From a virus (taxonomy: Duplodnaviria > Heunggongvirae > Uroviricota > Caudoviricetes): a stretch of 28,819 bases of DNA. The DNA lies in IMG/VR virus record IMGVR_UViG_2541047926_000006; one strand, given 5' to 3'. The translations under genes and the position numbers were made by a program. The notes beneath the pieces were generated by a model. That model was not told where the DNA came from, did not search any database, and worked only from the letters and a program-made list of their open reading frames with translations. Shown here piece after piece: positions 3,306 to 28,819 of the stretch (its first letter is position 1; each line of letters starts with the position of its first letter).

Positions 3306-3881
3306 CTACGGCAGTGCTGGCCATTCAATATCCTGTGCAGTTGACGTATCAACACGGTTCAGCAACACCCGATACTTTTTCCAGGCTTCCAGCAATGAGG
3401 TTTCTTCCTCCGTTGCGATTTCCAGATCTACAGCATCCTGAAGTGGCGCAATATGCTCACTGGCTACCTGCATCAGGCTGTTTTTTGTTTCTTCCGCCTC
3501 TCGGATCCGGAACAGTTTTTCTGCTTCTGCATCTTTCACCCAGGCTGTGCCGTTCCACTTCTGAAACTCCCCTTCCGGCGATAACCAGGTAACATTTTCC
3601 GGTAACGGACCGAGTTCAGAAATAAATAACGCGTCCCCTGACGCTACGTCATAAACCGTTTTACCCCGATGGTCTTCAACGAGATGCCACGATGCCTTAT
3701 CACTGTTGAAAACAGCCACAAAGCCAGCAGGAATATCTGGTGGTGCAATATCGGTACTGTTTGCTGGCAGACCTGTATGAGGCGGAATATATGCGTCACC
3801 TTCACCAATAAATTCATTAGTTCCGGCCAGCAGATTATAAATTTTTATGGTCCGTGGTTGTTCACTCATTCTGAATGCCAT
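3306..3881 (-). CDS. tfaQ: Tail fibre assembly protein
   Basis: 191-aa ORF immediately downstream of the tail-fibre ORF with a 1-nt stop/start overlap (TAATG). Sequence recognised as Tfa family. Confidence 0.85.
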
Positions 3882-5062
3882 TATGCAAGCCTCACAATAT
3901 AGTTAAATGCGATGTTTTTGACGGTGTTTTCCGCGTTACCAGCAGCGTTAACGGTGATGGTGTGTCCATGTGAACCAATCGCAACGGAGTGCGTATGAGC
4001 ACCAATACCGACAGTATGCGCGTGTGCACCTGCAGATGCTGCTGTGCCGGACAGTGAATGGCTATGATTACCATCTGTACTGGTATTCGCTAACCACCCC
4101 GTAGACATACCTACTGAGCCTTGTACACCCCAGGTATTTTGACCTGAGCTTGTATAACCATATTGATAAGTATCTTTAAAAACACTGGGGTTAAATCGAC
4201 GGCCATCTCTATGGCTGTGATTACCAGCTGCATTCGTGCTGCCACTTAAACTATGGGTATGCGCACCAGTGTTATTCGTGGATTTAGTGCCGTAATCAAA
4301 CGACGATGTGGTTTTCGTCCCCAAATCCGTACTGGATGCGCTGGCGCTGTGGGTATGCGATTTAATGCCGTCCTGTTCCTGAGACAATACGGCCCGACCA
4401 CTGGCAGGTTTGCCCTTAATCGTCCAGCCACGCATATCAGGGATCACGCCTGACGGATAAGCCGCTGCAAGTTTCGGGTATGCAGATTTGTCAAAAGCCT
4501 GCCCCTGCATCAGGGCATAGCCAGACGGAACGGTATCTGATGGCCACGGGATTGGTGCGCCAGGCGGATAAAACTGCTCTGATGGCGTATAGAGTGAATA
4601 AACTGTACCGTCCGTTAACCCTTCCGGCTTATTAGCAGAATATGCTGGTGACGTATGAATCGTCACGCTGGCATTACTGGTATAATCCCATTGAATATTT
4701 ACACCAGTCGCATAATTTCCGATTGCAACGTAAATATCGTAAGTATCACCAGATGTATTAACCCAGGCAAAATTTGTAAACCCTGTCAATGTGCGCTGCC
4801 ATAAAGCACCAGTAATCCCCTTCGGATTACCATTACCTGCACGTAAAACAAGTTCAGATATACCTGCCTGTTGAGGTGACCCCACGTTAAATCCAGCGCC
4901 ACCAATCAACGTAATTGAAACAACAGAACTCGCCTGTGGCATGGTTACCGTTGCTAATTTGAACCAACCAGCACCACCGCTGAATGACATTGTTGTTGAG
5001 TTAAGCGTACCAATATCTTTCGGCGTCAGTGTTATATCCGCTGAAAGCGCCTTACCATTCAC
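3881..5062 (-). CDS. stfQ: Side tail fibre protein, C-terminal (receptor-binding) part, with His-x-His repeats
   Basis: 393-aa ORF with repeated GAHTHS / GNHSHS / GSHGHT motifs typical of T-even and lambdoid fibre tips. In a different frame from the N-terminal Stf fragment upstream. Confidence 0.75.
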
Positions 5063-5374: not shown

Positions 5375-5974
5375 TCAGAACTTATAACCGACACCCACGA
5401 TGAAACCGTCAGTGCGCCAGTCACCGCTGCCGGAGCCTTCATAAGCGACATCAACGGCCACGGATTCGGTCGGGTTAAACTGCACGCCAGCCCCCCACGC
5501 CAGAGACGTGTTGCTGTGGCGACCGTCATCACTTCCGGTCAGCACATCGTGCGTTTTCCCCGTATTGTCGGTCACCTGCAGATAATTCCCGGAGAAAGTC
5601 GACACACGGCTGTAAGCCACACCCGCCATCGCATACGCGCTGAACCATTCATTCACGCGCACAGACGGCCCCGCCATCACGCTGAACCAGCGGTTACGCA
5701 CGGAATCTTCATACCAGCGGGTATCGCTGTAATGCGTTTTTTGCTCATCTTCAGCGTTGGCATAACTGAATGACGTAATCAGCCCCAGCGTGTCCGTAAA
5801 CTCATAACGGTATTTCACGTTAATCCCGTTCAGATTATCGCTGCCGGGAGCGTTCGTACGGGCATGAAGATACCCTGCGCTCAGTGTGGCCTGCTGCTCA
5901 GACGCCCATGCAGGCGCACCGGATACGGCCAGACAGATGGCTGCGGACAAAATGGCTGCACAAACTTTACGCAT
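5375..5974 (-). CDS. lom: Lom/Ail-family outer-membrane beta-barrel protein
   Basis: 199 aa with signal peptide [24 protein letters not shown], alternating beta-strand pattern and C-terminal GYKF. Sits between J and stf as in lambda. GAGAGG Shine-Dalgarno upstream. Confidence 0.85.
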
Positions 5975-6040: not shown

Positions 6041-7450
6041 TCAGCTGATACTGATGCCTGCGGTGGCTTTCTTCATCACCACAACCAGCAAATCGCTGAT
6101 ACTTGCTGTGGGATACCAGTCATTTACCAGCCATGCTGACACCGAAAACTCCAGCGTCATGTGGCCGTGACCAGCTGGCATATCAATAACACCACTGTAA
6201 ATCAGCGTATTATCCAGCGCGGTACGGTTATAAATTTCAGCACCATTTTTCTTCACTATCAGGCGGCATGACGAATAAATATCGTTATTCTCCCGCTCAT
6301 GTTTAGCGCCGCAGAATGCCACCGCTGGAATAACAATTTGCCTGTCAAAAGGCTGATCGTCATAAATCCTGACGGTAATGGTCCCTGATGGCCACCGCTC
6401 CGGTGCCCGGGAGTCCTGCGGGAAAGCCTTACCCACTGTTTTGACAATATCGCCTTCAATCTGATTGGCTGACAGTTTCCCCTTAATCTGACAGTTCTCA
6501 TTAATCGTGACGTTGTTGAGCGTCCCGGAGTTCGCATTCACACTGCCACTGATATCCGCATTTTTAGCAGTCAGCTTTCCGTCCGGTGTCAGGGAAAATG
6601 CCGGTGGATTTCCACCGCTGGTAATGGTGGGGGCCGTCAGATACTTCAGGAACACGTCGTTCATGAATATCTGATCGCCCTGACCAACAAACATCGGTTT
6701 TGTGTTGCCATTCGCAGGATTAACCATCGCAATCCTGTCCGCCGCCAGCAGCACCTGACTCTGCATGCCGTCAGGGGTGTTCTCAATACCGGCACCAATA
6801 CCCGCGATATAAAGGCGTCCGTCCTGCATCTGCTGCAGCTTCACAGCCCACATGCTGTTCAGGTTATTATTTGTATCAACCTGAACCTTCTGTATCTGCT
6901 GAATTGCCGCACTCTGGTCTTCCAGTTTCTTATTGACGGTCTGCGTGATTTCATTGCTGACATCCGTAATGGACGTCCTGATTTCAGCCAGGTCAGGCGC
7001 AAGCTGACCGTTATCAATCTGCGTCCACAGCTCCTGAGCCAGATGGGTTTTCCCTATCCCGTCGAGAATACTGGCAATTTCACCTGCGATCCGCGACAGC
7101 ACGAAAGTACAGAATGCGGTTTCCACCACTTCAGCGGAGTCTCTGGCATTCTTCAGTTCCTGTGCGTCGGCCTGCGCACGCGTAAGTCGATGGCGTTCGT
7201 ACTCAATAGTCCCTGGCTGGAGATCTGCCTCGCTGGCCTGCCGCAGTTCTTCAACCTCCCGGCGCAGCTTTTCGTTCTCAATTTCAGCATCCCTTTCGGC
7301 ATACCATTTTATAACGGCGGCAGAGTCATAAAGCACCTCATTACCCTTGCCACCGCCTCGCAGAACGGGCATTCCCTGTTCCTGCCAGTTCTGAATGGTA
7401 CGGATACTCGCACCGAAAATGTCAGCCAGCTGCTTTTTGTTGACTTCCAT
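6041..7450 (-). CDS. nohA: Chimeric ORF: terminase small subunit Nu1 N-terminus fused in frame to a tail-tip protein J C-terminal region
   Basis: First ~130 aa ([78 protein letters not shown]...) match lambda Nu1 as I recall it. The remainder (…[30 protein letters not shown]…[14 protein letters not shown]…) resembles the lambda J C-terminal domain. One continuous 469-aa frame. Confidence 0.85.
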
Positions 7451-9428: not shown

Positions 9429-9633
9429 TCATTTTCACTTTCTTAAATCTAACGACAGATGGCTAACATTTAAGTATTGTGAAATATTATCAAATGTAAT
9501 CATCATTGATTTACAAAAGATACATTTTGCCCCGAAAGGATTTCTGTCAGAAACATCAAAAGATGATGTTCTATACTGAGAACCATGGCAACACGGGCAT
9601 CTAAAGTGAATATGGTTTGTAATATTTTCTACC

Positions 9634-9846
9634 TCAAAGTGCCACTACATGAACAGCTGCAGGGCCTTTAGGTCCGTTCTCAATACCAAATTCGACTTCC
9701 TGATTCTCAGTTAACGTTTTGAAATCGTTGCTCTGAATAGCTGAGAAATGCACAAACACATCTTTGCTACCATCTTTCGGCGTGATGAAACCAAAACCTT
9801 TTTCAGGGTTAAACCATTTCACTAAACCAGTCATTTTGTTAGACAT
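9634..9846 (-). CDS. cspI: Cold-shock protein CspI (CspA family)
   Basis: 70 aa, [38 protein letters not shown]..., with RNP1/RNP2 motifs. AAGG Shine-Dalgarno. Confidence 0.9.
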
Positions 9847-10209
9847 CATTATTACCTTTTGAAGAAGTTAGCCCTTGGGCAGAATGGTCCGAAAAAAAAT
9901 ATCAGAGAGAAAAACCAACAAGGAAATCTCAAGAGGTACAAAGAATAAAATTATAACAATGACTGCTTCAGATAATTTTGTAACAAACCAGAACACCATT
10001 AACGCATGATTAACCAACCATAGCAAGGATTACTTTTGTAAAGAAAAACACACGAATGAAACAATAGCTTTATTTATTAATAAAACGTGTCATTCTGTCT
10101 AATGACCTTTTATCTTACCCTTAAGATTTCAAGGATTTTGACTCATGGAAGAGTCCTTTTTATTTAAATTTCACATTCAGCGCTAAAAATAATCCGATTT
10201 AATATTAAT

Positions 10210-11237
<1,028 letters not shown>

Positions 11238-11350
11238 GGATATTTATCAGGATTTATCGGCTTCAAATCCCCGGATATGTTAAATCTTACCTCACCAGTG
11301 ATGGGCACTGGCGGGAGGAGGATGTCAATCTGATAAACACAGAGGTGACT

Positions 11351-11611
11351 ATGGATTACACAAATCTACCAAAACAAACTTTTGCTGATTTAATCGCACT
11401 CAGGCAAGCAGTCGTAGCTCTAATCAACTTGTTGCCGGAGAAGGAAAAGGAATTAGTTAAAGCGCTTCTTAACAGAACTGCCGCCGATTTTTCATCATAT
11501 CCACTGACAGATGACCTTGCGGACCTTCCTGAATTAATTGCAGCGTCCGCCATTAAGCTTACTGAAGAGATTTACCCTCCTCAAAAATCTTCACAAAATT
11601 CCTGCGAGTAA
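11351..11611 (+). CDS. Hypothetical 86-aa protein, convergent with and overlapping the 3' end of the DUF1327-like gene
   Basis: ATG at 11351 preceded by AGAGG about 5 nt upstream. The product looks helical and protein-like. No family recognised, so it could be a spurious antisense ORF. Confidence 0.35.
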   Translation: MDYTNLPKQTFADLIALRQAVVALINLLPEKEKELVKALLNRTAADFSSYPLTDDLADLPELIAASAIKLTEEIYPPQKSSQNSCE

Positions 11612-12110
11612 CTTCAATGCAATAATCGTAAAACGCCGCAAACTGCTCATCGCGGCGTTTTTTTTCATCTTCAGAAGGAATCAGCACCGACAATTTTTTA
11701 TTCAGATCAGCGACGCTGCCCTCCAGTTTTTCAATGGGCGATTCAATATCATCTTTTTCTGACCGCAATGCCGTCGGTGGCGTCTTCAGAGAACCAGTAA
11801 TTCTTCCCGGTAGCTTTCCTTTGTAGGTTATCCACACATTCTGCGCCTCTAAAATTATGGGGCGCTTTTCCGGCGACTGCTCATCCCCTTCACATAACCC
11901 GGCAGCAACATCCAGGAAGACCTGTCTGATGCTCATTCTGGCTGCTGCCTCATAAAACTCCAGCGCGGCACCTTCAACACGGTCCAGCGAGATGTCCAGG
12001 TCAAAAATTTCACCGTCAAAGCGTTCTTTGTCCTGTAATGCTAAAGTTACCGTAACTTTATTCTCAAAATTGCGGATCCCTTTCACAATCAGTTCATAGT
12101 TTTGAGTCAT
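11559..12110 (-). CDS. ydfR: Uncharacterised protein inserted between pinholin and endolysin (ydfR position; DUF1327-like by recollection)
   Basis: 183-aa ORF between essQ and rrrQ on the same strand. Symbol assigned by position; I recall K-12 YdfR as shorter, so this may be a longer or intact form. Confidence 0.6.
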   Translation of the reverse strand: MTQNYELIVKGIRNFENKVTVTLALQDKERFDGEIFDLDISLDRVEGAALEFYEAAARMSIRQVFLDVAAGLCEGDEQSPEKRPIILEAQNVWITYKGKLPGRITGSLKTPPTALRSEKDDIESPIEKLEGSVADLNKKLSVLIPSEDEKKRRDEQFAAFYDYCIEVTRRNFVKIFEEGKSLQ

Positions 12111-12114
12111 TGAA

Positions 12115-12330
12115 TTACTCTCCTCTCGCAGCCTTACGCCTGTCTTCTTTAATCTTGAAATAAAGATTTGTCAGATACGTCAGCAGGCCAAAAACCAGGC
12201 TACCCAGCACACCGATTGCAGCCCACTGTGACGGAGTTACTTTATCGAGTAACTGCAATGCCCAGAAACCAGCATTACCCGCCGATGTGCCATAGGCAAC
12301 ACCTGTTGTTAACTTATCCATTGATTTCAT
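12115..12330 (-). CDS. essQ: Phage-21-type pinholin with dual start motif (MKSM...)
   Basis: 71 aa, [71 protein letters not shown], near-identical in pattern to S21 as I recall it. Start chosen at MKSM, not the 96-aa maximal ORF. Confidence 0.85.
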
Positions 12331-12803: not shown

Positions 12804-13083
12804 AGATTGTGGTGCTTTTTGTGGGAGTCATCCACTTACGCACTTTGTTTTGCCATGCCAGCAGTTAGCTTCTGCTGTAAAACTATTCATGCAGCAAACC
12901 TGCACTTCACCACAATGGTTAGCATACTTTTCCTGATTAAGATTTTGCCAAATATGCTAGCCATTGTTTCATGTATTGGACCTCCTTACTTTTTATTAAA
13001 GAGATCCAATATTCACTACTCTGTCCGTATCTCTACTCAGGCATCAGCCTTCTTCGTTATCGTATACAGACGAGCGATGAATT

Positions 13084-13299
13084 TTAATCAGTAATGATGA
13101 CATTTGCTGCTGCAGGACCTTTAGCACCACTCTCTATAGAGAAGGTAACCTTTTGACCTTCAAATAAGGTTCGATAATTATCATTCTGAATCGCAGAAAA
13201 ATGCACAAACACATCTTTACTACCATCAACAGGAGAAATAAAGCCGAAACCTTTATCAGCGTTAAACCATTTTACTAAACCAGTCATTTTATTTGACAT
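13084..13299 (-). CDS. cspB: Cold-shock protein CspB (CspA family)
   Basis: 71 aa, [71 protein letters not shown]. Confidence 0.92.
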
Positions 13300-13599
13300 T
13301 CTACATTCCTTAACTTGAGCCTTTCGGCATAAATGGTTTGCATAACAGAAACGACTTCGTACTTAATTGGAGAGACTCAAAGAAGGAATAAGTGAATAAC
13401 ACCTGAAATGAGAACTGCTTTAGTAAACTACTTCGTATATCGTCTGTTCTTCAAACCGACGCAATCATTAACGCATAGTTGAACATATGAAGCAATGTTT
13501 ATTTTAGACATCCAGCCATCTTCAACCCCATCAAAAAACTATAGCTTTCTTCAGGAACGTGTGTATAGTGCGCCAAGTTATCAGTATTAAGGAATTTTT

Positions 13600-14104: not shown

Positions 14105-14140
14105 AAAACCCGCTCATCAGCGGGTTTTCTACTTTTTCTT
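14105..14140. terminator. Bidirectional rho-independent terminator between cspF and the Q-like gene
   Basis: AACCCGC TCATCA GCGGGTT stem-loop flanked by an A-rich run upstream and TTTTCTACTTTTTC downstream. Confidence 0.55.
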
Positions 14141-14233
14141 AACGTCGGGTATACAAAGCCCATCGTTGAAAAAATTTTATCCATATTTTTTGAAAAATGC
14201 AAACATCATGTCGCCATCTTCAGCAAAAATCAT

Positions 14234-14740
14234 TTATCTCGTCACCTTCCTCAATTGCGCTTCCGCGTATGCTTCTTCCTGCCAGCACTTTGTTACCAGT
14301 TTACCAATGACGTCCGCATACCCCTTATACCACTGATAATCGGTCAGGTCTGGTACCAGCTTCTGGACATGACGTCGTGCCAGCGTGGTCGGTAAACGAC
14401 TAAACCGGTTTCCATTACAACGCCCACAAATCTTATATACCGGTACGCCATGAAACCGGGTTCTTTTTTCATCCAGAACAATCCCTTTACCCTTACACCC
14501 TCTGCACGCTGTGCTGGCTTCGCCCTTACCATGGCAATGCTGACATAGTTCCTTCACCCATTCTTCCTTGATTACAGATTCCCCGCGTCTGTAGTGTTTC
14601 ACCACTTCGCGCAATACATTATAAAATCCCGTACCTGAACAATGCTCACAGCGAGCCTTACTTGCCGCAGACCTGGAGTAATCAGCAAAGGCAAAACTCA
14701 CGAGGTAAGGAATAATCTGTAACCGGATTTCTTCACTCAA
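14234..14740 (-). CDS. quuQ: Q-like late antiterminator, distal part, with four DnaJ-type CxxCxGxG zinc-finger repeats
   Basis: 168-aa ORF whose only in-frame start is TTG at 14738-14740. Motifs CEHCSGTG, CQHCHGKG, CRGCKGKG, CGRCNGNR. Lies upstream of the lysis cassette as a Q gene should. Confidence 0.7.
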   Translation of the reverse strand: MSEEIRLQIIPYLVSFAFADYSRSAASKARCEHCSGTGFYNVLREVVKHYRRGESVIKEEWVKELCQHCHGKGEASTACRGCKGKGIVLDEKRTRFHGVPVYKICGRCNGNRFSRLPTTLARRHVQKLVPDLTDYQWYKGYADVIGKLVTKCWQEEAYAEAQLRKVTR

Positions 14741-14985
14741 TTGTTCAATGTCGGGTTATCCAGTGCCATCGCGTAATTTAGCAGGCCTTCAATCGCAAAC
14801 TGAGGGTCCTGAACACCAACTTTTGCCAGAAATAAGGCCAACCCAAGTGGTGCTTTCGACTGCACCATCCCCTGCGCTGCCATTACATCCGTAATTGTTA
14901 AACAACCGGTGCCTGTCGCTGGAGCGTCATCGCTCAATTTTGGAGATTTTGGGGAGTAATATTTTGGTAAGGCTTCAAGGTTCAT
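14737..14985 (-). CDS. quuQ: Q-like antiterminator, proximal part (82 aa), 1 nt out of frame with the distal part
   Basis: ATG at 14985 with GGAG 7 nt upstream (MNLEALPKYY...). Its stop (14737-14739) overlaps the TTG of the next ORF. The 752-nt span plus one base would give a single 250-aa frame. Confidence 0.55.
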   Translation of the reverse strand: MNLEALPKYYSPKSPKLSDDAPATGTGCLTITDVMAAQGMVQSKAPLGLALFLAKVGVQDPQFAIEGLLNYAMALDNPTLNN

Positions 14986-14998
14986 GCTCGTTCTCCAC

Positions 14999-16048
14999 TT
15001 ACGCCAGTACGCCAATTGCCAGCGCGCGATCGATAAAACGAAATATCAGCTCCAGTTGGGAGCCATACTTATCTTCAAATGCCACTGTATCCGTATGCAG
15101 CTCGTTGTGATGCTTTCTGCACAAAGGCAACACAAAGAGATCATGTGCTTTTGTTCCCATTCCGCCCTGCCCGTGACCAATCAGATGATGCGGATCGTCG
15201 GCTGGCATACCGCAGCAAGCACACGGCTGTGTCTTAACCCAACGTGTGTATTTCTCCTTAACCCAGCGGCGACGTTTAGGCAGCTTCATGAAAGATTCCG
15301 GAGACTCTGGATCAACGGTGATGCTTACCACCGTCTTTTCCTGTGGTGATTTTTGTTGCTGGTGGGCGTAAGGCAACGGTGCAAGATTTTTTGTGCGTTG
15401 TTTCAATATGCTGGTGGCGGTCTGCTCTCCCGGTACGATGTCGCTTTCGCGGTACACCGAGCAGATTTTTTCCGCTGGTAATCCCAGCGAACGACGCGAT
15501 ACAGCCTCAGGTAGTGCATCCACCACCTGATTGCAGACCGCCCACCAGGATAATTCAGCCAAAGATAATTCCCGCTCCTGCGTACCGCTTATTGCGTGAC
15601 GGATGACGTCAATCACCCATGCTGTCAGATTTTGTTGAGCAAGCAGCTCCAGTGATTCCGATGTCTGGTCACGCAGTTGGTTGTCGCAGTGCCAGCACAA
15701 CACCATTGCGCCGGTACCATAACGGTGAATGACTGTTTCAGTGTGATGGTAATCGCCATTAGGCCGCTGGCAGGATGTAACATGACGTAATAGCCAGTCG
15801 GACAATGCGCCAACGCCGCCAGCAGCACGAATCACCCGTTCGTTACTAAAAAACGGCAGCAATGTTTTGTCTTCCGCCAGCGGCTGGCGAACGGCAGGAA
15901 CGACTCCGGATGGCAGATTACGCATGCTTTTTGGTTCCGGTTCCACCAGCACTCGAGGATTATGAAATATCTGTATGGATTCACGGCCCGGCTTAAGGAC
16001 CACCAGCCCAAGCTCAGGCACCAGAACAGGTCTAAGTAATACCCGCAC
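14999..16048 (-). CDS. ydfU: DUF968-type protein with a C-terminal Cys/His-rich putative HNH-like motif
   Basis: Start chosen at GTG 16046-16048, directly preceded by GGAGG, giving 349 aa. C-terminal CACCGMPADDPHHLIGHG...CRKHHNELH. The maximal ORF extends to 16087. Confidence 0.8.
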   Translation of the reverse strand: MRVLLRPVLVPELGLVVLKPGRESIQIFHNPRVLVEPEPKSMRNLPSGVVPAVRQPLAEDKTLLPFFSNERVIRAAGGVGALSDWLLRHVTSCQRPNGDYHHTETVIHRYGTGAMVLCWHCDNQLRDQTSESLELLAQQNLTAWVIDVIRHAISGTQERELSLAELSWWAVCNQVVDALPEAVSRRSLGLPAEKICSVYRESDIVPGEQTATSILKQRTKNLAPLPYAHQQQKSPQEKTVVSITVDPESPESFMKLPKRRRWVKEKYTRWVKTQPCACCGMPADDPHHLIGHGQGGMGTKAHDLFVLPLCRKHHNELHTDTVAFEDKYGSQLELIFRFIDRALAIGVLA

Positions 16049-18917: not shown

Positions 18918-20257
18918 TCAATCTATTTTATCGGGATCAGGCTTCTTTTTAGGTAACTTCGGGGGCTTAACTTGCTGATGACTTTGCGTTCGGCGCGTAA
19001 GCCAGGGATGGTCAGCTTTAGATTTAACATAGTATTTTGAGCGTAAATCAATACGGGCATTATCCACTCGTTCATGGACACTCTTTTCATCATCCAGTGG
19101 TATAGGCTCCGGGCCATCAACATACTTTTCCCAGCCCAGCGCTTTCCCGTCATACAGAACGTTAATTTCACCGTCAAAGTTCTCACATACAGTAACAACC
19201 GAATGCCTAAGTCGATATCCCCGGCCCTCACTGCGTACCTGAAACGCACTGCTTTTGTACTGGAAAGTGAGATTTTTAGACAGAACGCGCTTCGCCTGTA
19301 GGCTGAAGATATAACCCAGTTCCTCTTCAGAATGGTGCACATCAAGATGAGCATTATCAGTAGTACGAGGCGACGTAGCGAACCGGTTGTTATAGGCTTC
19401 AATAAAGGTCGGCAACCATGCATTTGCTGTTTCAATATCACTGATATTCTGAAGCCGCATTTCTTTGACCAGCCTGTCCTGTAGTGTCTGATTGGCGCGC
19501 TCTACCCGCCCTTTTGCCTGCGGGCTGTTGGCATGGATTGGCTCGATGCCCAGTGTCTTTATCGCACGAGTGAACTGGGTCAGCTCACCTTCCCGCTCTG
19601 GGTTATTTACCCTGAATATACTGTGTCTATCAGAGTAGAGAGCGAGCGGTACGCCATGATCATTAAGGTAACCCCGGAGGGTTTCCATGTAAGCCCGGGT
19701 TGTTTCAGCAGGCACAAAACGCAACGCCATCAACGCACTGGTGGCATCATCAATGAAAACGATCAGTGTACATCTGTGGCCTCGATTTTCAAACCAGTCA
19801 TGAGGTGAGCCATCAATCTGGATCAGTTCACCGTAAGATGGTCGTCGCATGCGGCGTTGATATATACGGGCAATTTTACGACGGCGTTCACGCCATAACC
19901 CCTCTTCTATCATCCACTTTCTGAGAGTTTCAACGGATAAAGATAAACCGTGTATCTCGCGCAATTTTTCGCACGCAAACGTAGGTCCAAAATCAGCGTA
20001 ACGGCCTTTGAGGAGTGAAATTACTGTGCTCTGAATTCAGTAGAAAAGGAATTATTAGGACGCTTTCCACGTCGGTGGGAAACCAGACCAGAAGGCCCTT
20101 CATTTCTATACCGTTGCACCAGACGTTTAACCTGCCGAATAGAAATGCCAATGCGTGCCGCAGCTTGTTCCTGAGTAATATGTCGATTAATTGACTCCTG
20201 AATAATCTGAAGTCGGTGGAGTTCCTTATGACTCATCGTAACAGTCTCTTTGATCAT
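18918..20257 (-). pseudogene. DDE (rve-superfamily) integrase/transposase, split into an N-terminal HTH ORF and a catalytic ORF in a different frame
   Basis: 78-aa HTH ORF (20021..20257, ...ISIRQVKRLVQRYRNEG...) and 348-aa ORF (18918..19964) with D...D...E spacing (IQIDGS, YSDRHS, KGRVER). The frames differ by 1 nt and no A6G-type slippery site was seen. Confidence 0.65.
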
Positions 20258-24081: not shown

Positions 24082-24134
24082 TTTCTGGTGACGTTTGGCG
24101 GTATCAGTTTTACTCCGTGACTGCTCTGCCGCCC
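24082..24134 (+). ncRNA. dicF: DicF small RNA (Hfq-dependent; represses ftsZ translation)
   Basis: TTTCTGGTGACGTTTGGCGGTATCAGTTTTACTCCGTGACTGCTCTGCCGCCC followed by TTTTT, matching the DicF sequence as I recall it, including its intrinsic terminator. Confidence 0.9.
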
Positions 24135-24685: not shown

Positions 24686-24945
24686 AACAGTTCCGTAATA
24701 AATATCCGGTTTCATTCTTATATGCCAGCAATGGCAGGGATTTGTTCATCCTTAAATCTGTCATGAGGTTAAAACAAAATGAGTAAAGTCTTTATTTGCG
24801 CCGCTATTCCTGACGAACTGGCAACTTTCACTGGCAGTTCCTGGAACATTATCCGGCTGCTCAGGACTGCGCTTATAAATTTATTGTCTGCGAGGATAAA
24901 CCTGGCATACCCCGCCCTGCCCTCGATTCATGGGATGCTGAATAT

Positions 24946-27180
24946 ATGCAGGAAAACCGCTGGGATGAGGAGTCTGCTTCTTTTGTCCCGGTTGAGACTG
25001 AATCCGATCCGATGAACGTCACTTTTGACAAGCTGGCCCCTGAAGTACAGAACGCTGTCATGGTTAAGTTCGACACATGTGAAAACATCACCGTTGATAT
25101 GGTTATTAGCGCACAGGAATTGTTGCAGGAAGACATGGCAACATTCGACGGACATATCGTTGAAGCGTTGATGAAAATGCCAGAAGTTAACGCCATGTAT
25201 CCGGAGCTTAAGTTGCACGCCATTGGGTGGGTTAAGCATAAATGTATTCCTGGTGCTAAATGGCCCGAAATTCAGGCAGAGATGCGCATCTGGAAAAAAC
25301 GTCGCGAAGGTGAACGCAAGGAAACCGGAAAATACACGTCTGTTGTTGATCTCGCCCGCGCCAGAGCCAATCAACAGTACACTGAAAATTCAACAGGAAA
25401 AATCAGCCCGGTCATTGCTGCCATTCATCGCGAATACAAGCAGACATGGAAAACACTGGATGACGAACTGGCCTACGCTCTCTGGCCTGGTGATGTGGAT
25501 GCCGGAAACATTGACGGCAGCATCCATCGCTGGGCAAAAAAAGAAGTTATCGACAACGACCGCGAAGACTGGAAGCGTATCTCGGCATCAATGCGCAAAC
25601 AGCCTGATGCCCTTCGCTACGACCGCCAAACTATTTTTGGCCTTGTCCGTGAGCGTCCGATCGACATTCACAAAGATCCCGTAGCACTGAACAAATATAT
25701 CTGCGAATACCTGACGACAAAGGGCGTGTTTGAGAATGAAGAAACAGACCTGGGCACTGTTGATGTTCTCCAGTCATCAGAAACACAAACTGATGCAGTG
25801 GAAACTGAGGTATCTGATATCCCAAAAAATGAAACCGCGCCGGAAGCTGAACCATCTGTAGAGCGTGAGGGGCCGTTCTATTTCCTCTTCGCAGATAAGG
25901 ACGGAGAAAAATACGGTCGCGCAAACAAACTTTCTGGTCTGGATAAGGCACTGGCTGCTGGCGCCACTGAAATCACAAAAGAAGAATATTTTGCCCGAAA
26001 AAATGGCACATACACGGGCTTACCGCAAAATGTAGATACCGCTGAAGATTCAGAACAACCAGAGCCGATAAAAGTTACCGCTGACGAAGTAAACAAAATT
26101 ATGCAGGCAGCCAATATCAGCCAGCCTGACGCCGATAAGTTGCTTGCTGCATCACGTGGTGAATTTGTTGAAGGGATTAGTGACCCGAATGATCCGAAAT
26201 GGGTTAAGGGGATCCAGACCCGCGATTCTGTGAACCAGAACCAGCATGAATCGGAACGGAACTACCAAAAAGCGGAACAAAACAGTCCAAATGCGTTACA
26301 AAACGAGCCAGAAACGAAACAGCCTGAACCAGTGGCGCAACAGGAAGTGGAAAAAGCCTGCACCGCCTGCGGTCAGACCGGCGGCGGCAACTGCCCTGAT
26401 TGTGGCGCGGTGATGGGCGACGCAACATACCAAGAAACATTCGATGAAGAGTATCAGGTTGAAGTTCAGGAAGATGATCCGGAGGAAATGGAAGGCGCTG
26501 AACATCCACACAAGGAGAACACTGGCGGCAATCAGCATCACAATAGCGATAATGAAACTGGCGAGACGGCAGATCACCCAATTAAGGTGAACGGTCATCA
26601 CGAAATCACATCCACCAGCAGGACGTGTGACCATCTAATGATCGACCTTGAAACCATGGGAAAAAATCCTGATGCCCCGATCATCTCAATAGGTGCAATA
26701 TTTTTCGATCCGCAAACCGGAGATATGGGACCGGAATTTAGTAAGACTATCGATCTGGAAACTGCTGGCGGAGTCATTGATCGGGACACCATTAAATGGT
26801 GGCTTAAGCAATCACGCGAAGCGCAATCTGCCATTATGACCGATGAAATCCCGTTAGATGATGCACTGTTACAATTGCGGGAATTTATCGACGAAAACTC
26901 CGGTGAATTTTTTGTTCAGGTTTGGGGAAATGGAGCCAACTTCGACAACACGATTTTGCGCCGTTCATACGAACGGCAGGGGATCCCCTGCCCGTGGCGT
27001 TACTACAACGATCGCGATGTACGCACAATCGTTGAGCTGGGGAAAGCCATAGACTTCGATGCCAGAACGGCTATTCCATTCGAAGGTGAGCGCCATAATG
27101 CACTTGATGACGCCCGTTACCAGGCAAAATACGTTTCAGTTATCTGGCAAAAACTGATCCCGAGTCAGGCTGATTCTTAA
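24946..27180 (+). CDS. ydfE: Large prophage protein with an internal zinc ribbon and a C-terminal DEDDh 3'-5' exonuclease domain (intact form of the ydfE locus)
   Basis: 744-aa ORF. Exo motifs MIDLETMG (D,E), GNGANFDNTIL (D), ERHNALDDARYQAKY (H-x4-D). Zinc ribbon CTACGQTGGGNCPDCG. Acidic low-complexity linker. Start codon uncertain. Confidence 0.75.
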   Translation: MQENRWDEESASFVPVETESDPMNVTFDKLAPEVQNAVMVKFDTCENITVDMVISAQELLQEDMATFDGHIVEALMKMPEVNAMYPELKLHAIGWVKHKCIPGAKWPEIQAEMRIWKKRREGERKETGKYTSVVDLARARANQQYTENSTGKISPVIAAIHREYKQTWKTLDDELAYALWPGDVDAGNIDGSIHRWAKKEVIDNDREDWKRISASMRKQPDALRYDRQTIFGLVRERPIDIHKDPVALNKYICEYLTTKGVFENEETDLGTVDVLQSSETQTDAVETEVSDIPKNETAPEAEPSVEREGPFYFLFADKDGEKYGRANKLSGLDKALAAGATEITKEEYFARKNGTYTGLPQNVDTAEDSEQPEPIKVTADEVNKIMQAANISQPDADKLLAASRGEFVEGISDPNDPKWVKGIQTRDSVNQNQHESERNYQKAEQNSPNALQNEPETKQPEPVAQQEVEKACTACGQTGGGNCPDCGAVMGDATYQETFDEEYQVEVQEDDPEEMEGAEHPHKENTGGNQHHNSDNETGETADHPIKVNGHHEITSTSRTCDHLMIDLETMGKNPDAPIISIGAIFFDPQTGDMGPEFSKTIDLETAGGVIDRDTIKWWLKQSREAQSAIMTDEIPLDDALLQLREFIDENSGEFFVQVWGNGANFDNTILRRSYERQGIPCPWRYYNDRDVRTIVELGKAIDFDARTAIPFEGERHNALDDARYQAKYVSVIWQKLIPSQADS

Positions 27181-27252
27181 TGTTCAACTGTCGCCGGTTG
27201 TGACTGGTATTCTGCAACCGGCGCTCGTCTGATGTAAGAGATAAAGAAATCG

Positions 27253-27504
27253 ATGAGCGAAGTAATCATGATTGTCTCTCCCGGCAAATGGGTATCCGAA
27301 GAGCAGTTAATTGCGCTGAAAGGAATAAAAAAAGGTACGTTAAAAAAGGCCCGGGAAAAATCGTTTATGGAAGGAAGGGAATATAAGCATGTCGCTCATG
27401 ACGGTATGCCATGGGATAACAGTCCATGCTTTTACAACCTGGAAGAAATTGATCGCTGGATTGAGCGCCAGGCATCAGCGAGACCAAGACGTCATCTTAC
27501 TTGA
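27253..27504 (+). CDS. Putative excisionase / small DNA-binding protein upstream of int
   Basis: 83-aa ORF immediately upstream of the integrase on the same strand. Assigned from position and size only. Confidence 0.45.
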   Translation: MSEVIMIVSPGKWVSEEQLIALKGIKKGTLKKAREKSFMEGREYKHVAHDGMPWDNSPCFYNLEEIDRWIERQASARPRRHLT

Positions 27505-27538
27505 CTAAAAGCCACACTAACTAATGAGAGAAGTTGAA

Positions 27539-28819
27539 ATGAAATATCCGACAGGCGTGGAAAACCATGGAGGGAAATTACGTATCTGGTTTGTTTATAA
27601 AGGCGTAAGAGTCAGGGAAAATCTGGGGGTTCCTGACACAGCAAAAAACAGGCGCGTTGCAGGTGAACTACGCTCCTCTGTTTGTTACGCAATAAAAACT
27701 GGTGTTTTCGACTATGCAAAACAGTTTCCCTCCTCACGCAATCTGGAAAAATTTGGTGAGGCCCGACAAGATTTAACCATAAAAGAACTGGCTGAAAAAT
27801 TTCTGGCACTGAAAGAAACTGAAGTCGCCAAAACATCACTCAACACATACCGTGCCGTCATCAAAAATATCCTGAGCATAATCGGTGAAAAAAATCTTGC
27901 CTCATCGATTAATAAAGAAAAATTACTGGAGGTTCGTAAAGAGCTACTGATTGGATACCAGATCCCCAAAAGTAACTATATTGTTACACAACCAGGGAGA
28001 TCGGCTGTAACTGTAAATAATTACATGACAAATCTTAACGCCGTGTTCCAGTTTGGTGTTGATAACGGTTACCTGGCAGATAATCCGTTTAAGGGGATCT
28101 CGCCATTAAAGGAATCAAGAACCATTCCGGATCCTCTTTCGCGGGAGGAATTTATCCGTCTTATCGATGCGTGCAGAAATCAGCAAGCAAAAAATTTATG
28201 GTGTGTTTCTGTTTATACTGGCGTTCGCCCTGGTGAGCTGTGTGCACTTGGATGGGAGGACATAGATCTGAAAAATGGAACAATGATGATCAGGAGAAAT
28301 TTAGCAAAAGACCGTTTCACGGTACCAAAAACACAGGCGGGAACCAATCGGGTCATTCATCTTATTAAGCCAGCAATCGACGCTCTCCGGAGTCAGATGA
28401 CATTAACGAGACTGAGCAAAGAGCATATCATTGATGTTCACCTCAGAGAGTATGGCAGAACAGAAAAACAAAAATGCACCTTTGTTTTTCAACCTGAAGT
28501 GTCAGCGAGAGTAAAAAATTATGGTGACCATTTTACCGTTGACTCAATAAGGCAGATGTGGGACGCAGCGATAAAACGTGCCGGACTCCGCCATCGAAAA
28601 TCATATCAGTCGAGACATACTTATGCCTGCTGGTCGCTGACAGCTGGTGCTAACCCGGCATTTATAGCAAACCAGATGGGCCATGCAGATGCGCAAATGG
28701 TATTTCAGGTATACGGAAAATGGATGTCTGAAAACAATAATGCACAGGTAGCTTTGTTAAATACACAGTTAAGCGAGTTTGCCCCAACCATTCCCCATAA
28801 CGAAGCAATGAAAAATTAA
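27539..28819 (+). CDS. intQ: Tyrosine recombinase (phage integrase)
   Basis: Start chosen at MKYPTGVENHGGKLRIWFVYKG... after a purine-rich Shine-Dalgarno. C-terminal catalytic region with R...HxxR...Y pattern (…SRHTYACWSL…VYGKWM…). TAA stop is the last three bases of the window. Confidence 0.85.
   Translation: MKYPTGVENHGGKLRIWFVYKGVRVRENLGVPDTAKNRRVAGELRSSVCYAIKTGVFDYAKQFPSSRNLEKFGEARQDLTIKELAEKFLALKETEVAKTSLNTYRAVIKNILSIIGEKNLASSINKEKLLEVRKELLIGYQIPKSNYIVTQPGRSAVTVNNYMTNLNAVFQFGVDNGYLADNPFKGISPLKESRTIPDPLSREEFIRLIDACRNQQAKNLWCVSVYTGVRPGELCALGWEDIDLKNGTMMIRRNLAKDRFTVPKTQAGTNRVIHLIKPAIDALRSQMTLTRLSKEHIIDVHLREYGRTEKQKCTFVFQPEVSARVKNYGDHFTVDSIRQMWDAAIKRAGLRHRKSYQSRHTYACWSLTAGANPAFIANQMGHADAQMVFQVYGKWMSENNNAQVALLNTQLSEFAPTIPHNEAMKN

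Follow-up and report, generated by a model that had tools for sequence, protein, structure and literature searches.

In the window analysed here, a 28,819-nucleotide stretch of tailed-phage DNA (Caudoviricetes), a gene resembling the late antiterminator Q is divided between two overlapping reading frames. The question raised by this locus is whether the division inactivates the gene, is bridged by recoding, allows the C-terminal zinc-finger part to be made alone, or is an error of the record. The preliminary description of the locus had left a frameshift pseudogene, a programmed frameshift and TTG-coupled expression of the zinc-finger part side by side. The arrangement is very probably a recent, inherited and lineage-specific loss-of-function frameshift in quuQ/ydfT of a defective Qin-like prophage, carried by E. 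coli UMEA 3240-1 and by a small number of strains related to it.

Two reading frames and one missing adenine

The divided gene consists of the following elements.

14737..14985, minus strand: ORF1, 82 aa; quuQ/ydfT codons 1-81, Asn in place of Lys82, then TGA; annotated as EQY62477.1, 'hypothetical protein'
14234..14740, minus strand: ORF2, 168 aa; quuQ/ydfT codons 83-250 in another frame; annotated as EQY62476.1, 'phage antitermination protein'
14741..14742, minus strand: site of a 1-nt deletion; AA in the window versus AAA (the Lys82 codon) in K-12
Frameshift junction sequence: AACAATTGAGTG

ORF1 starts with ATG at 14985, preceded by GGAG 9 nt upstream, and ends with TGA at 14739-14737. ORF2 starts with TTG (Leu83) at 14740-14738 and ends at 14234. 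The stop of the former and the start of the latter share 2 nt as TTGA (14740-14737), an overlap of the kind seen in translationally coupled pairs. The coordinates, the Shine-Dalgarno sequence and the 2-nt overlap given in the preliminary description were thus borne out. Its statement that TTG is the only start holds in so far as this codon is the first possible one and no ATG occurs in frame, but in-frame GTG codons follow it (e.g. codon 14).

In K-12 MG1655, ydfT (b1559, QuuQ, putative antitermination protein Q) is one CDS of 753 nt and 250 aa within the cryptic prophage Qin. Base-by-base comparison of window positions 14200-15020 with K-12 revealed a single difference over 821 nt, one missing A, so that 821 of 822 positions are identical. 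The K-12 sequence AAC AAA TTG AGT becomes AAC AAT TGA GT in the window, the Lys82 codon being short of one A, so that the frame opened by the normal ATG is closed after 82 residues. Compared with K-12, the frame is split by this missing base into 82 + 168 aa; the two ORFs together retain all 250 residues except for K82N and L83M (the latter as fMet). The earlier expectation that one nucleotide added near 14738 would give a 250-aa frame of the QuuQ type proved correct: the alignment to K-12 quuQ places the indel at the Lys82 AAA codon, at 14741-14742, a few nucleotides upstream of the proposed point, the intact K-12 product is 250 aa long, and both pieces match the Q family PF03589. K-12 QuuQ spans both ORFs and does not correspond to the 168-aa part only. 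In the closest relative, strain 1297KP, the extra base is present at the deletion site.

The region is present in 2,472 of 5,426 complete E. coli genomes (megablast), and the genomes among the matches listed carry it as the single gene ydfT, 'antitermination protein (Q)', adjoining ydfU. When the junction was surveyed in complete E. coli genomes with a 61-nt query centred on it, the deletion was found in none of 2,380 records (2,733 places); all matches had 98.4% identity or less, the extra base being present. The deletion junction gave 0 exact-pattern matches in the GTDB species-representative genomes, which says only that no representative carries the allele. Outside E. coli, the full-length homologues listed in a protein search are single chains of 250-252 aa and 269 aa with 63-94% identity and the same Pfam architecture, from Salmonella, Citrobacter, Atlantibacter, Enterobacter, Kluyvera, Cronobacter, Raoultella, Kosakonia and other genera. 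The two-ORF arrangement as the norm, which would have told against the frameshift reading, was therefore rejected on the count of 0/2,380 records and the single-chain homologues of other genera.

In an alignment of 34 sequences, L83 is invariant and K82 and S84 nearly so, while the eight cysteines are invariant or nearly invariant. For the K-12 and O157:H7 alleles, dN/dS is 0.10 over the whole gene, with 0.11 in codons 1-82 and 0.09 in codons 83-250. These values indicate that both halves are under purifying selection as one protein, and the distribution of the intact gene indicates that the two-ORF state is derived. A literature search on ydfT/quuQ gave incidental mentions only, and among the titles and abstracts listed none deals with the function of QuuQ.

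An exact-sequence look-up in NCBI, ENA and Logan gave at least 8 contigs that encode the 82-aa product, and in all of these the 168-aa ORF likewise overlaps it. The NCBI carrier is scaffold KE702177.1 of E. coli UMEA 3240-1 (GCA_000461015.1), which bears the annotations EQY62477.1 and EQY62476.1 and, being 100% identical to the window over 20 kb, is its source; the ENA carrier is the MEGAHIT contig ERZ27282599; the Logan carriers are SRR7499281, SRR29490037, SRR32235960, SRR32236011 and SRR33527043. The ENA contig and that of SRR7499281 share the ydfT deletion but not another deletion that the window has at 20026; 3 further SNPs set the ENA contig apart from the window. Since these two differ from the window elsewhere, they represent related but distinct genomes and not copies of one record; the frameshift that they share is therefore a heritable change of a small lineage rather than a fault of assembly. 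One might suspect that a homopolymer was miscounted in the draft of UMEA 3240-1, because this source of the window is a scaffold-level assembly and has, at 20026, one further private 1-nt deletion, not seen in independent assemblies of related strains. Against this, the ydfT deletion recurs in the ENA MEGAHIT contig and in at least 5 Logan assemblies of different runs, two such assemblies differ from the window elsewhere, and a run of three bases is not an error-prone homopolymer. A sequencing or assembly artefact, the homopolymer read error that the preliminary description wished to see excluded, is thus highly improbable and was discarded, given that the 82-aa/168-aa pair occurs in NCBI, ENA and Logan assemblies, two of them differing from the window elsewhere.

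The second deletion, at 20026-20027 on the minus strand, lies in the remnant of an ISEsa1/ISNCY transposase and leaves ORFs of 78 aa and 331 aa in UMEA 3240-1. None of 789 complete-genome records carries it, nor do the contigs of ENA and SRR7499281; it may be either a strain-private mutation or an assembly error of the UMEA 3240-1 draft. Among the Logan contigs, that of SRR32236011 diverges from the window only downstream of 13600. Contig SRR33527043_44531 (1-1615) carries the same ydfT deletion on a haplotype otherwise matching strain TUM18781; on this haplotype the PR'/terminator sequence differs and the cspF region has a deletion. The presence of the deletion on this second haplotype could be due to recurrence, to a short recombination tract, or to a chimeric contig from a mixed sample; if it is no chimera, the contig is a hint that the deletion has recurred or spread.

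Protein family, fold and position of the break

Both pieces match PF03589, 'Antitermination protein Q' (cut-off 26.7 bits): ORF1 with 48.1 bits (E = 1.4e-12) and ORF2 with 124.6 bits (E = 1.8e-36), compared with 181.3 bits for the intact K-12 protein. ORF2 also matches PF00684 (DnaJ_CXXCXGXG) with 37.2 against a cut-off of 32.7 (E = 3.6e-9). Of the four CxxCxGxG repeats claimed earlier, three are exact (CEHCSGTG, CQHCHGKG and CRGCKGKG), while the fourth, CGRCNGNR, follows CxxCxGxR; the assignment to a DnaJ-type zinc finger holds, PF00684 being above its cut-off.

Lambda Q belongs to the same family (PF03589; PDB 4MO1, 7UBJ-7UBN) and has a homologous torus segment, four-helix HTH body and zinc ribbon. 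The intact protein aligns to Q-lambda (7UBM_Q) with E = 4.6e-36 in phmmer, residues 1-120 of QuuQ corresponding to lambda 1-125 and residues 160-250 to lambda 117-207. An AF2 model of the intact protein built with 34 homologues has a mean pLDDT of 76, with residues 1-27 disordered, and a Foldseek search with this model retrieved Q-lambda structures only, with E from 7e-13 (7UBN) to 3e-7. Homology to the solved Q-lambda is thus found in both sequence and fold, whereas an uninterrupted frame for the torus segment, body and arm is not found in the window, where a stop follows codon 82. The window copy would accordingly be classed, from its sequence, as a disrupted member of PF03589, a pseudogene. 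It differs from lambda Q in being frameshifted, and antitermination by QuuQ itself is putative, by analogy with lambda.

In Q-lambda, residues 1-44 are disordered until NusA binds, and then form a torus narrowing the RNA-exit channel (Yin et al. 2022, PMC9388147). The four-helix body, residues 61-113 and 153-207, includes the HTH by which the Q-binding element (QBE) is recognised, and residues 114-152 form a zinc-ribbon arm contacting DNA and sigma region 4 (PMC9388147). Q-lambda without residues 1-38 keeps QBE binding, while its antitermination is abolished (PMC9388147). ORF1 aligns to Q-lambda residues 1-86 and ORF2 to residues 87-207, the break between K82 and L83 corresponding to K86/L87 of Q-lambda. 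In the AF2 model, this break is in a three-residue loop between the helices 78-81 and 85-103, where 10-residue blocks have a pLDDT of 86-88. According to this model, the break interrupts the folded four-helix body itself, not a linker. By analogy with Q-lambda, ORF1 would comprise the torus-forming N-terminal segment and the first body helix, and ORF2 body helices 2-4, including the HTH, together with an enlarged eight-cysteine zinc arm.

The QuuQ arm is DnaJ-like, with four CxxC motifs in about 87 residues, whereas lambda has a zinc ribbon of 39 residues and four cysteines. The arm comprises residues about 109-195 of the intact protein, the two additional CxxC motifs being located on a beta-hairpin insertion. 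In DnaJ-type modules, motifs 1 + 4 and 2 + 3 make up two zinc centres; the AF2 model contains no metal. Homologues compared for arm length were P0086, P0091, P0099, P0109, P0120 and P0013. In the 269-aa subgroup (Kosakonia, Enterobacter, Raoultella, Citrobacter koseri) motifs 1 and 2 are set further apart by an even longer insert, and the Salmonella homologue P0013 (221 aa) is without motif 2. The DnaJ-type arm is common to the whole QuuQ subfamily and not special to the window.

Late control region and the prophage around it

Downstream of the divided gene are the elements of late control and the lysis genes, listed here with the Rfam matches of the window.

14174..14202, minus strand: PR'-like late promoter, TTGCAT, 17 nt, TAAAAT (promoter scan)
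14162..14167, minus strand: sigma-dependent pause element, AACGAT then GGG, identical to lambda +1..+6 of PR'
14105..14128, minus strand: hairpin terminator at the tR' position, with a GC-rich 10-bp stem and T runs on both sides
10210..12330, minus strand: lysis cassette, downstream of PR'/tR' (Pfam matches, gene order)
12115-12330, minus strand: essD holin
11559-12110, minus strand: ydfR (DUF1327)
10704-11237, minus strand: rrrQ lysozyme
10210-10707, minus strand: rzpQ, DUF2514, spanin-like
13068-13460, minus strand: cspA-type thermoregulator leader upstream of cspB (Rfam)
9588-9993, minus strand: cspA-type thermoregulator leader upstream of cspI (Rfam)
24083-24134, plus strand: DicF sRNA (Rfam)
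3340-3538, minus strand: IS009 RNA inside tfaQ (Rfam)

The PR'-like region is identical to that of K-12. In an ungapped comparison with lambda PR', 35 of 70 positions are identical, and the identities are concentrated in the -35, the spacer, the -10 and +1..+9. The stretch between the PR'-like hexamers is colinear with the lambda Q-binding element region. The element AACGATGGG at 14167 equals the lambda pause element and is aligned to lambda coordinate 44587, the start of the PR' (6S) transcript. Transcription would thus appear to start at about 14167. The terminator hairpin is about 40-65 nt downstream of the PR'-like start. The hairpin at 14105-14128 is bidirectional and also ends the convergent cspF-ynfS unit. 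The sigma-dependent pause element has a role in Q loading (PMC9388147). The lambda Q gene likewise has PR' just downstream, with the AACGATGGG pause element, a nearby terminator and then the lysis genes; in the window the order is the same, with the Q gene directly upstream of PR', the Q-binding region, the pause element, the terminator and the lysis genes. The Rfam and tRNA scans gave nothing within or beside the Q gene.

Read-through into the lysis cassette would presumably need Q. The same-strand order downstream is cspB, essD, ydfR, rrrQ, rzpQ and cspI, and both cspB and cspI have their own cspA-type 5'UTR thermoregulators (Rfam). With such leaders of their own, the csp genes would be independent of Q, and only lysis read-through would need it. 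The suggestion that the late genes as a group depend on Q was accordingly narrowed: it would apply to the lysis cassette, but not to the csp cargo. In the same region, ydfR (11559-12110) encodes 183 aa, DUF1327 with a C-terminal extension, versus about 103 aa in K-12; the rrrQ-ydfR interval (11247-11905) does not align with K-12, and ydfR of 1297KP is annotated as partial.

The ORF at 6041-7450 (minus strand, 469 aa) is a fusion in which the first 133 residues of the terminase small subunit Nu1 precede the tail-tip and C-terminal receptor-binding domains of gpJ. Next come lom (5375-5974, minus strand) and a tail-fibre gene (3881-5062, minus strand). Evidently, one large nu1-to-J deletion removed all head and most tail genes; with these gone, no particles would be possible whatever the state of Q. 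At the other end, 24709-28819 (plus strand) contains full-length exonuclease, excisionase and 426-aa integrase genes, mapped from the 1297KP annotation, and the window end coincides exactly with the end of the integrase gene.

K-12 Qin shares the neighbours of the Q gene, namely ydfU upstream and ynfS, cspF, cspB, ynfU, essQ/D, ydfR, rrrQ and rzpQ downstream. The prophage of the window differs from it in the intact int/xis/exo end, the ISEsa1 remnant and the Nu1-J fusion with lom, whereas in K-12 Qin an IS2 disrupts ydfE/intQ and a different, larger deletion occupies the nu1-J place. Identity of the window with K-12 was rejected: the Q region is 99.5% identical, but the window is mosaic elsewhere.

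Fate of the divided gene

Programmed -1 frameshift genes (dnaX, IS transposases, phage tail G/GT) likewise have two overlapping frames that need a -1 shift, and the criteria used for them here were taken from a review (PMC5009743). A -1 shift would join the frames of the window gene, both of which are open over a short overlap, and a single-tRNA slip at C-CCG (Pro78) is conceivable at a background level. The overlap, however, comprises 5 codons (14755-14740) with no X XXY YYZ heptamer inside; the sole heptamer of ORF1, CCCAAAA at 14953, is far outside it. No homopolymer of 5 or more is near the site, where the run is AA, and the 97 nt downstream, with an MFE of -26.8 kcal/mol, do not fold better than their shuffled versions (mean -22.6, z = -1.26). 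Neither a stimulatory RNA structure nor an upstream SD-like element was found at the break. Unlike the programmed genes, the window gene has no slippery heptamer, stimulatory structure or conserved arrangement, being a rare derived allele, and programmed frameshifting or slippage was ruled out on these three grounds. The chance that programmed or frequent -1 frameshifting, or transcriptional slippage, restores the 250-aa Q is accordingly minute, and the programmed frameshift proposed earlier was not upheld.

The gene could be active in two pieces if ORF2, reinitiated at UUG, joined ORF1 to reassemble the four-helix body non-covalently and antiterminate. The UUGA stop-start overlap has the geometry used for termination-reinitiation coupling, every residue except K82N and L83M is kept, the break is between two helices and not within one, and several related strains carry the allele free of further damage. 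Yet UUG is a weak start, and none of the Shine-Dalgarno-like sequences GGAG, GAGG or AGGA occurs in the 20 nt before the TTG; with such a start and a rare allele, the strong start and conservation of a translationally coupled pair are not found. The break, moreover, interrupts no flexible linker: the loop in which it falls is short and belongs to a compact bundle, modelled there with confidence (pLDDT about 86-88). Two highly conserved residues are altered. The two-ORF state, absent from the 2,380 records and from the listed single-chain homologues, is not a selected architecture. A functional split Q is thus very improbable. A broader version, in which the allele is not dead, the two chains form an active or attenuated natural split Q, and the deletion on the second haplotype marks the spread or recurrence of a tolerated or favoured allele, has a slimmer chance still. 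Alternatively, the C-terminal fragment alone might act as a dominant-negative or repressor at the PR' Q-binding element, where it would block the Q proteins of lambdoid phages with the same site, whether resident in the cell or entering it. The fragment keeps, by homology, the HTH and the QBE-contacting zinc arm, and Q-lambda without residues 1-38 still binds QBE (PMC9388147). Against such a role, the first helix of the four-helix body is missing, which makes folding doubtful, the start signal is weak, and the rare allele gives no population signal of selection. This reading is most unlikely. The TTG-coupled zinc-finger part proposed earlier would be only weakly possible and, by analogy with Q-lambda lacking residues 1-38 (PMC9388147), would not antiterminate.

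A loss-of-function frameshift is by far the best supported of the alternatives, and the earlier suggestion of a frameshift pseudogene is favoured by the single 1-nt deletion and the intact state of the gene elsewhere. Reinitiation at UUG would be only weakly possible in principle; it was concluded that the full-length product is probably formed at a background level at most, and the C-terminal fragment poorly if at all. By analogy with Q-lambda, the 82-aa product would contain the torus segment and one body helix but no DNA-binding or zinc-arm part, and the 168-aa remainder the HTH and zinc arm without the torus segment and the first body helix. Neither piece alone would both load at the Q-binding element and modify RNA polymerase: ORF2 alone would at best bind DNA, and ORF1 alone would be without a targeting module. 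With neither piece working alone, PR' transcripts would go no further than the terminator, some 60 nt downstream, and the prophage's own Q could not switch on the lysis cassette, which would stay off unless another Q were supplied. The csp genes would keep their own promoters and leaders.

As head and most tail genes had already been lost, the frameshift would be one more step of prophage decay. The mutation may be neutral, or mildly favourable through the disarming of the lysis genes. That neither ORF has acquired further mutations fits a recent event and would also fit continued selection. The locus thus appears to be an ordinary inactivation of a known gene and not a recoding device, and the entries EQY62477.1 and EQY62476.1 are best united under a single annotation, a frameshifted quuQ/ydfT pseudogene. 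Were the two-piece protein active, nature would have supplied a tool with which Q loading and torus formation could be separated, although the evidence argues against this. As a pseudogene, it offers a clean, datable example of prophage decay, in which the trans-acting late switch is lost while PR', the pause element, the terminator and the lysis cassette are intact. With Q lost and these cis elements and genes retained, the lysis genes of the prophage would be activable only by a compatible Q from another lambdoid phage.
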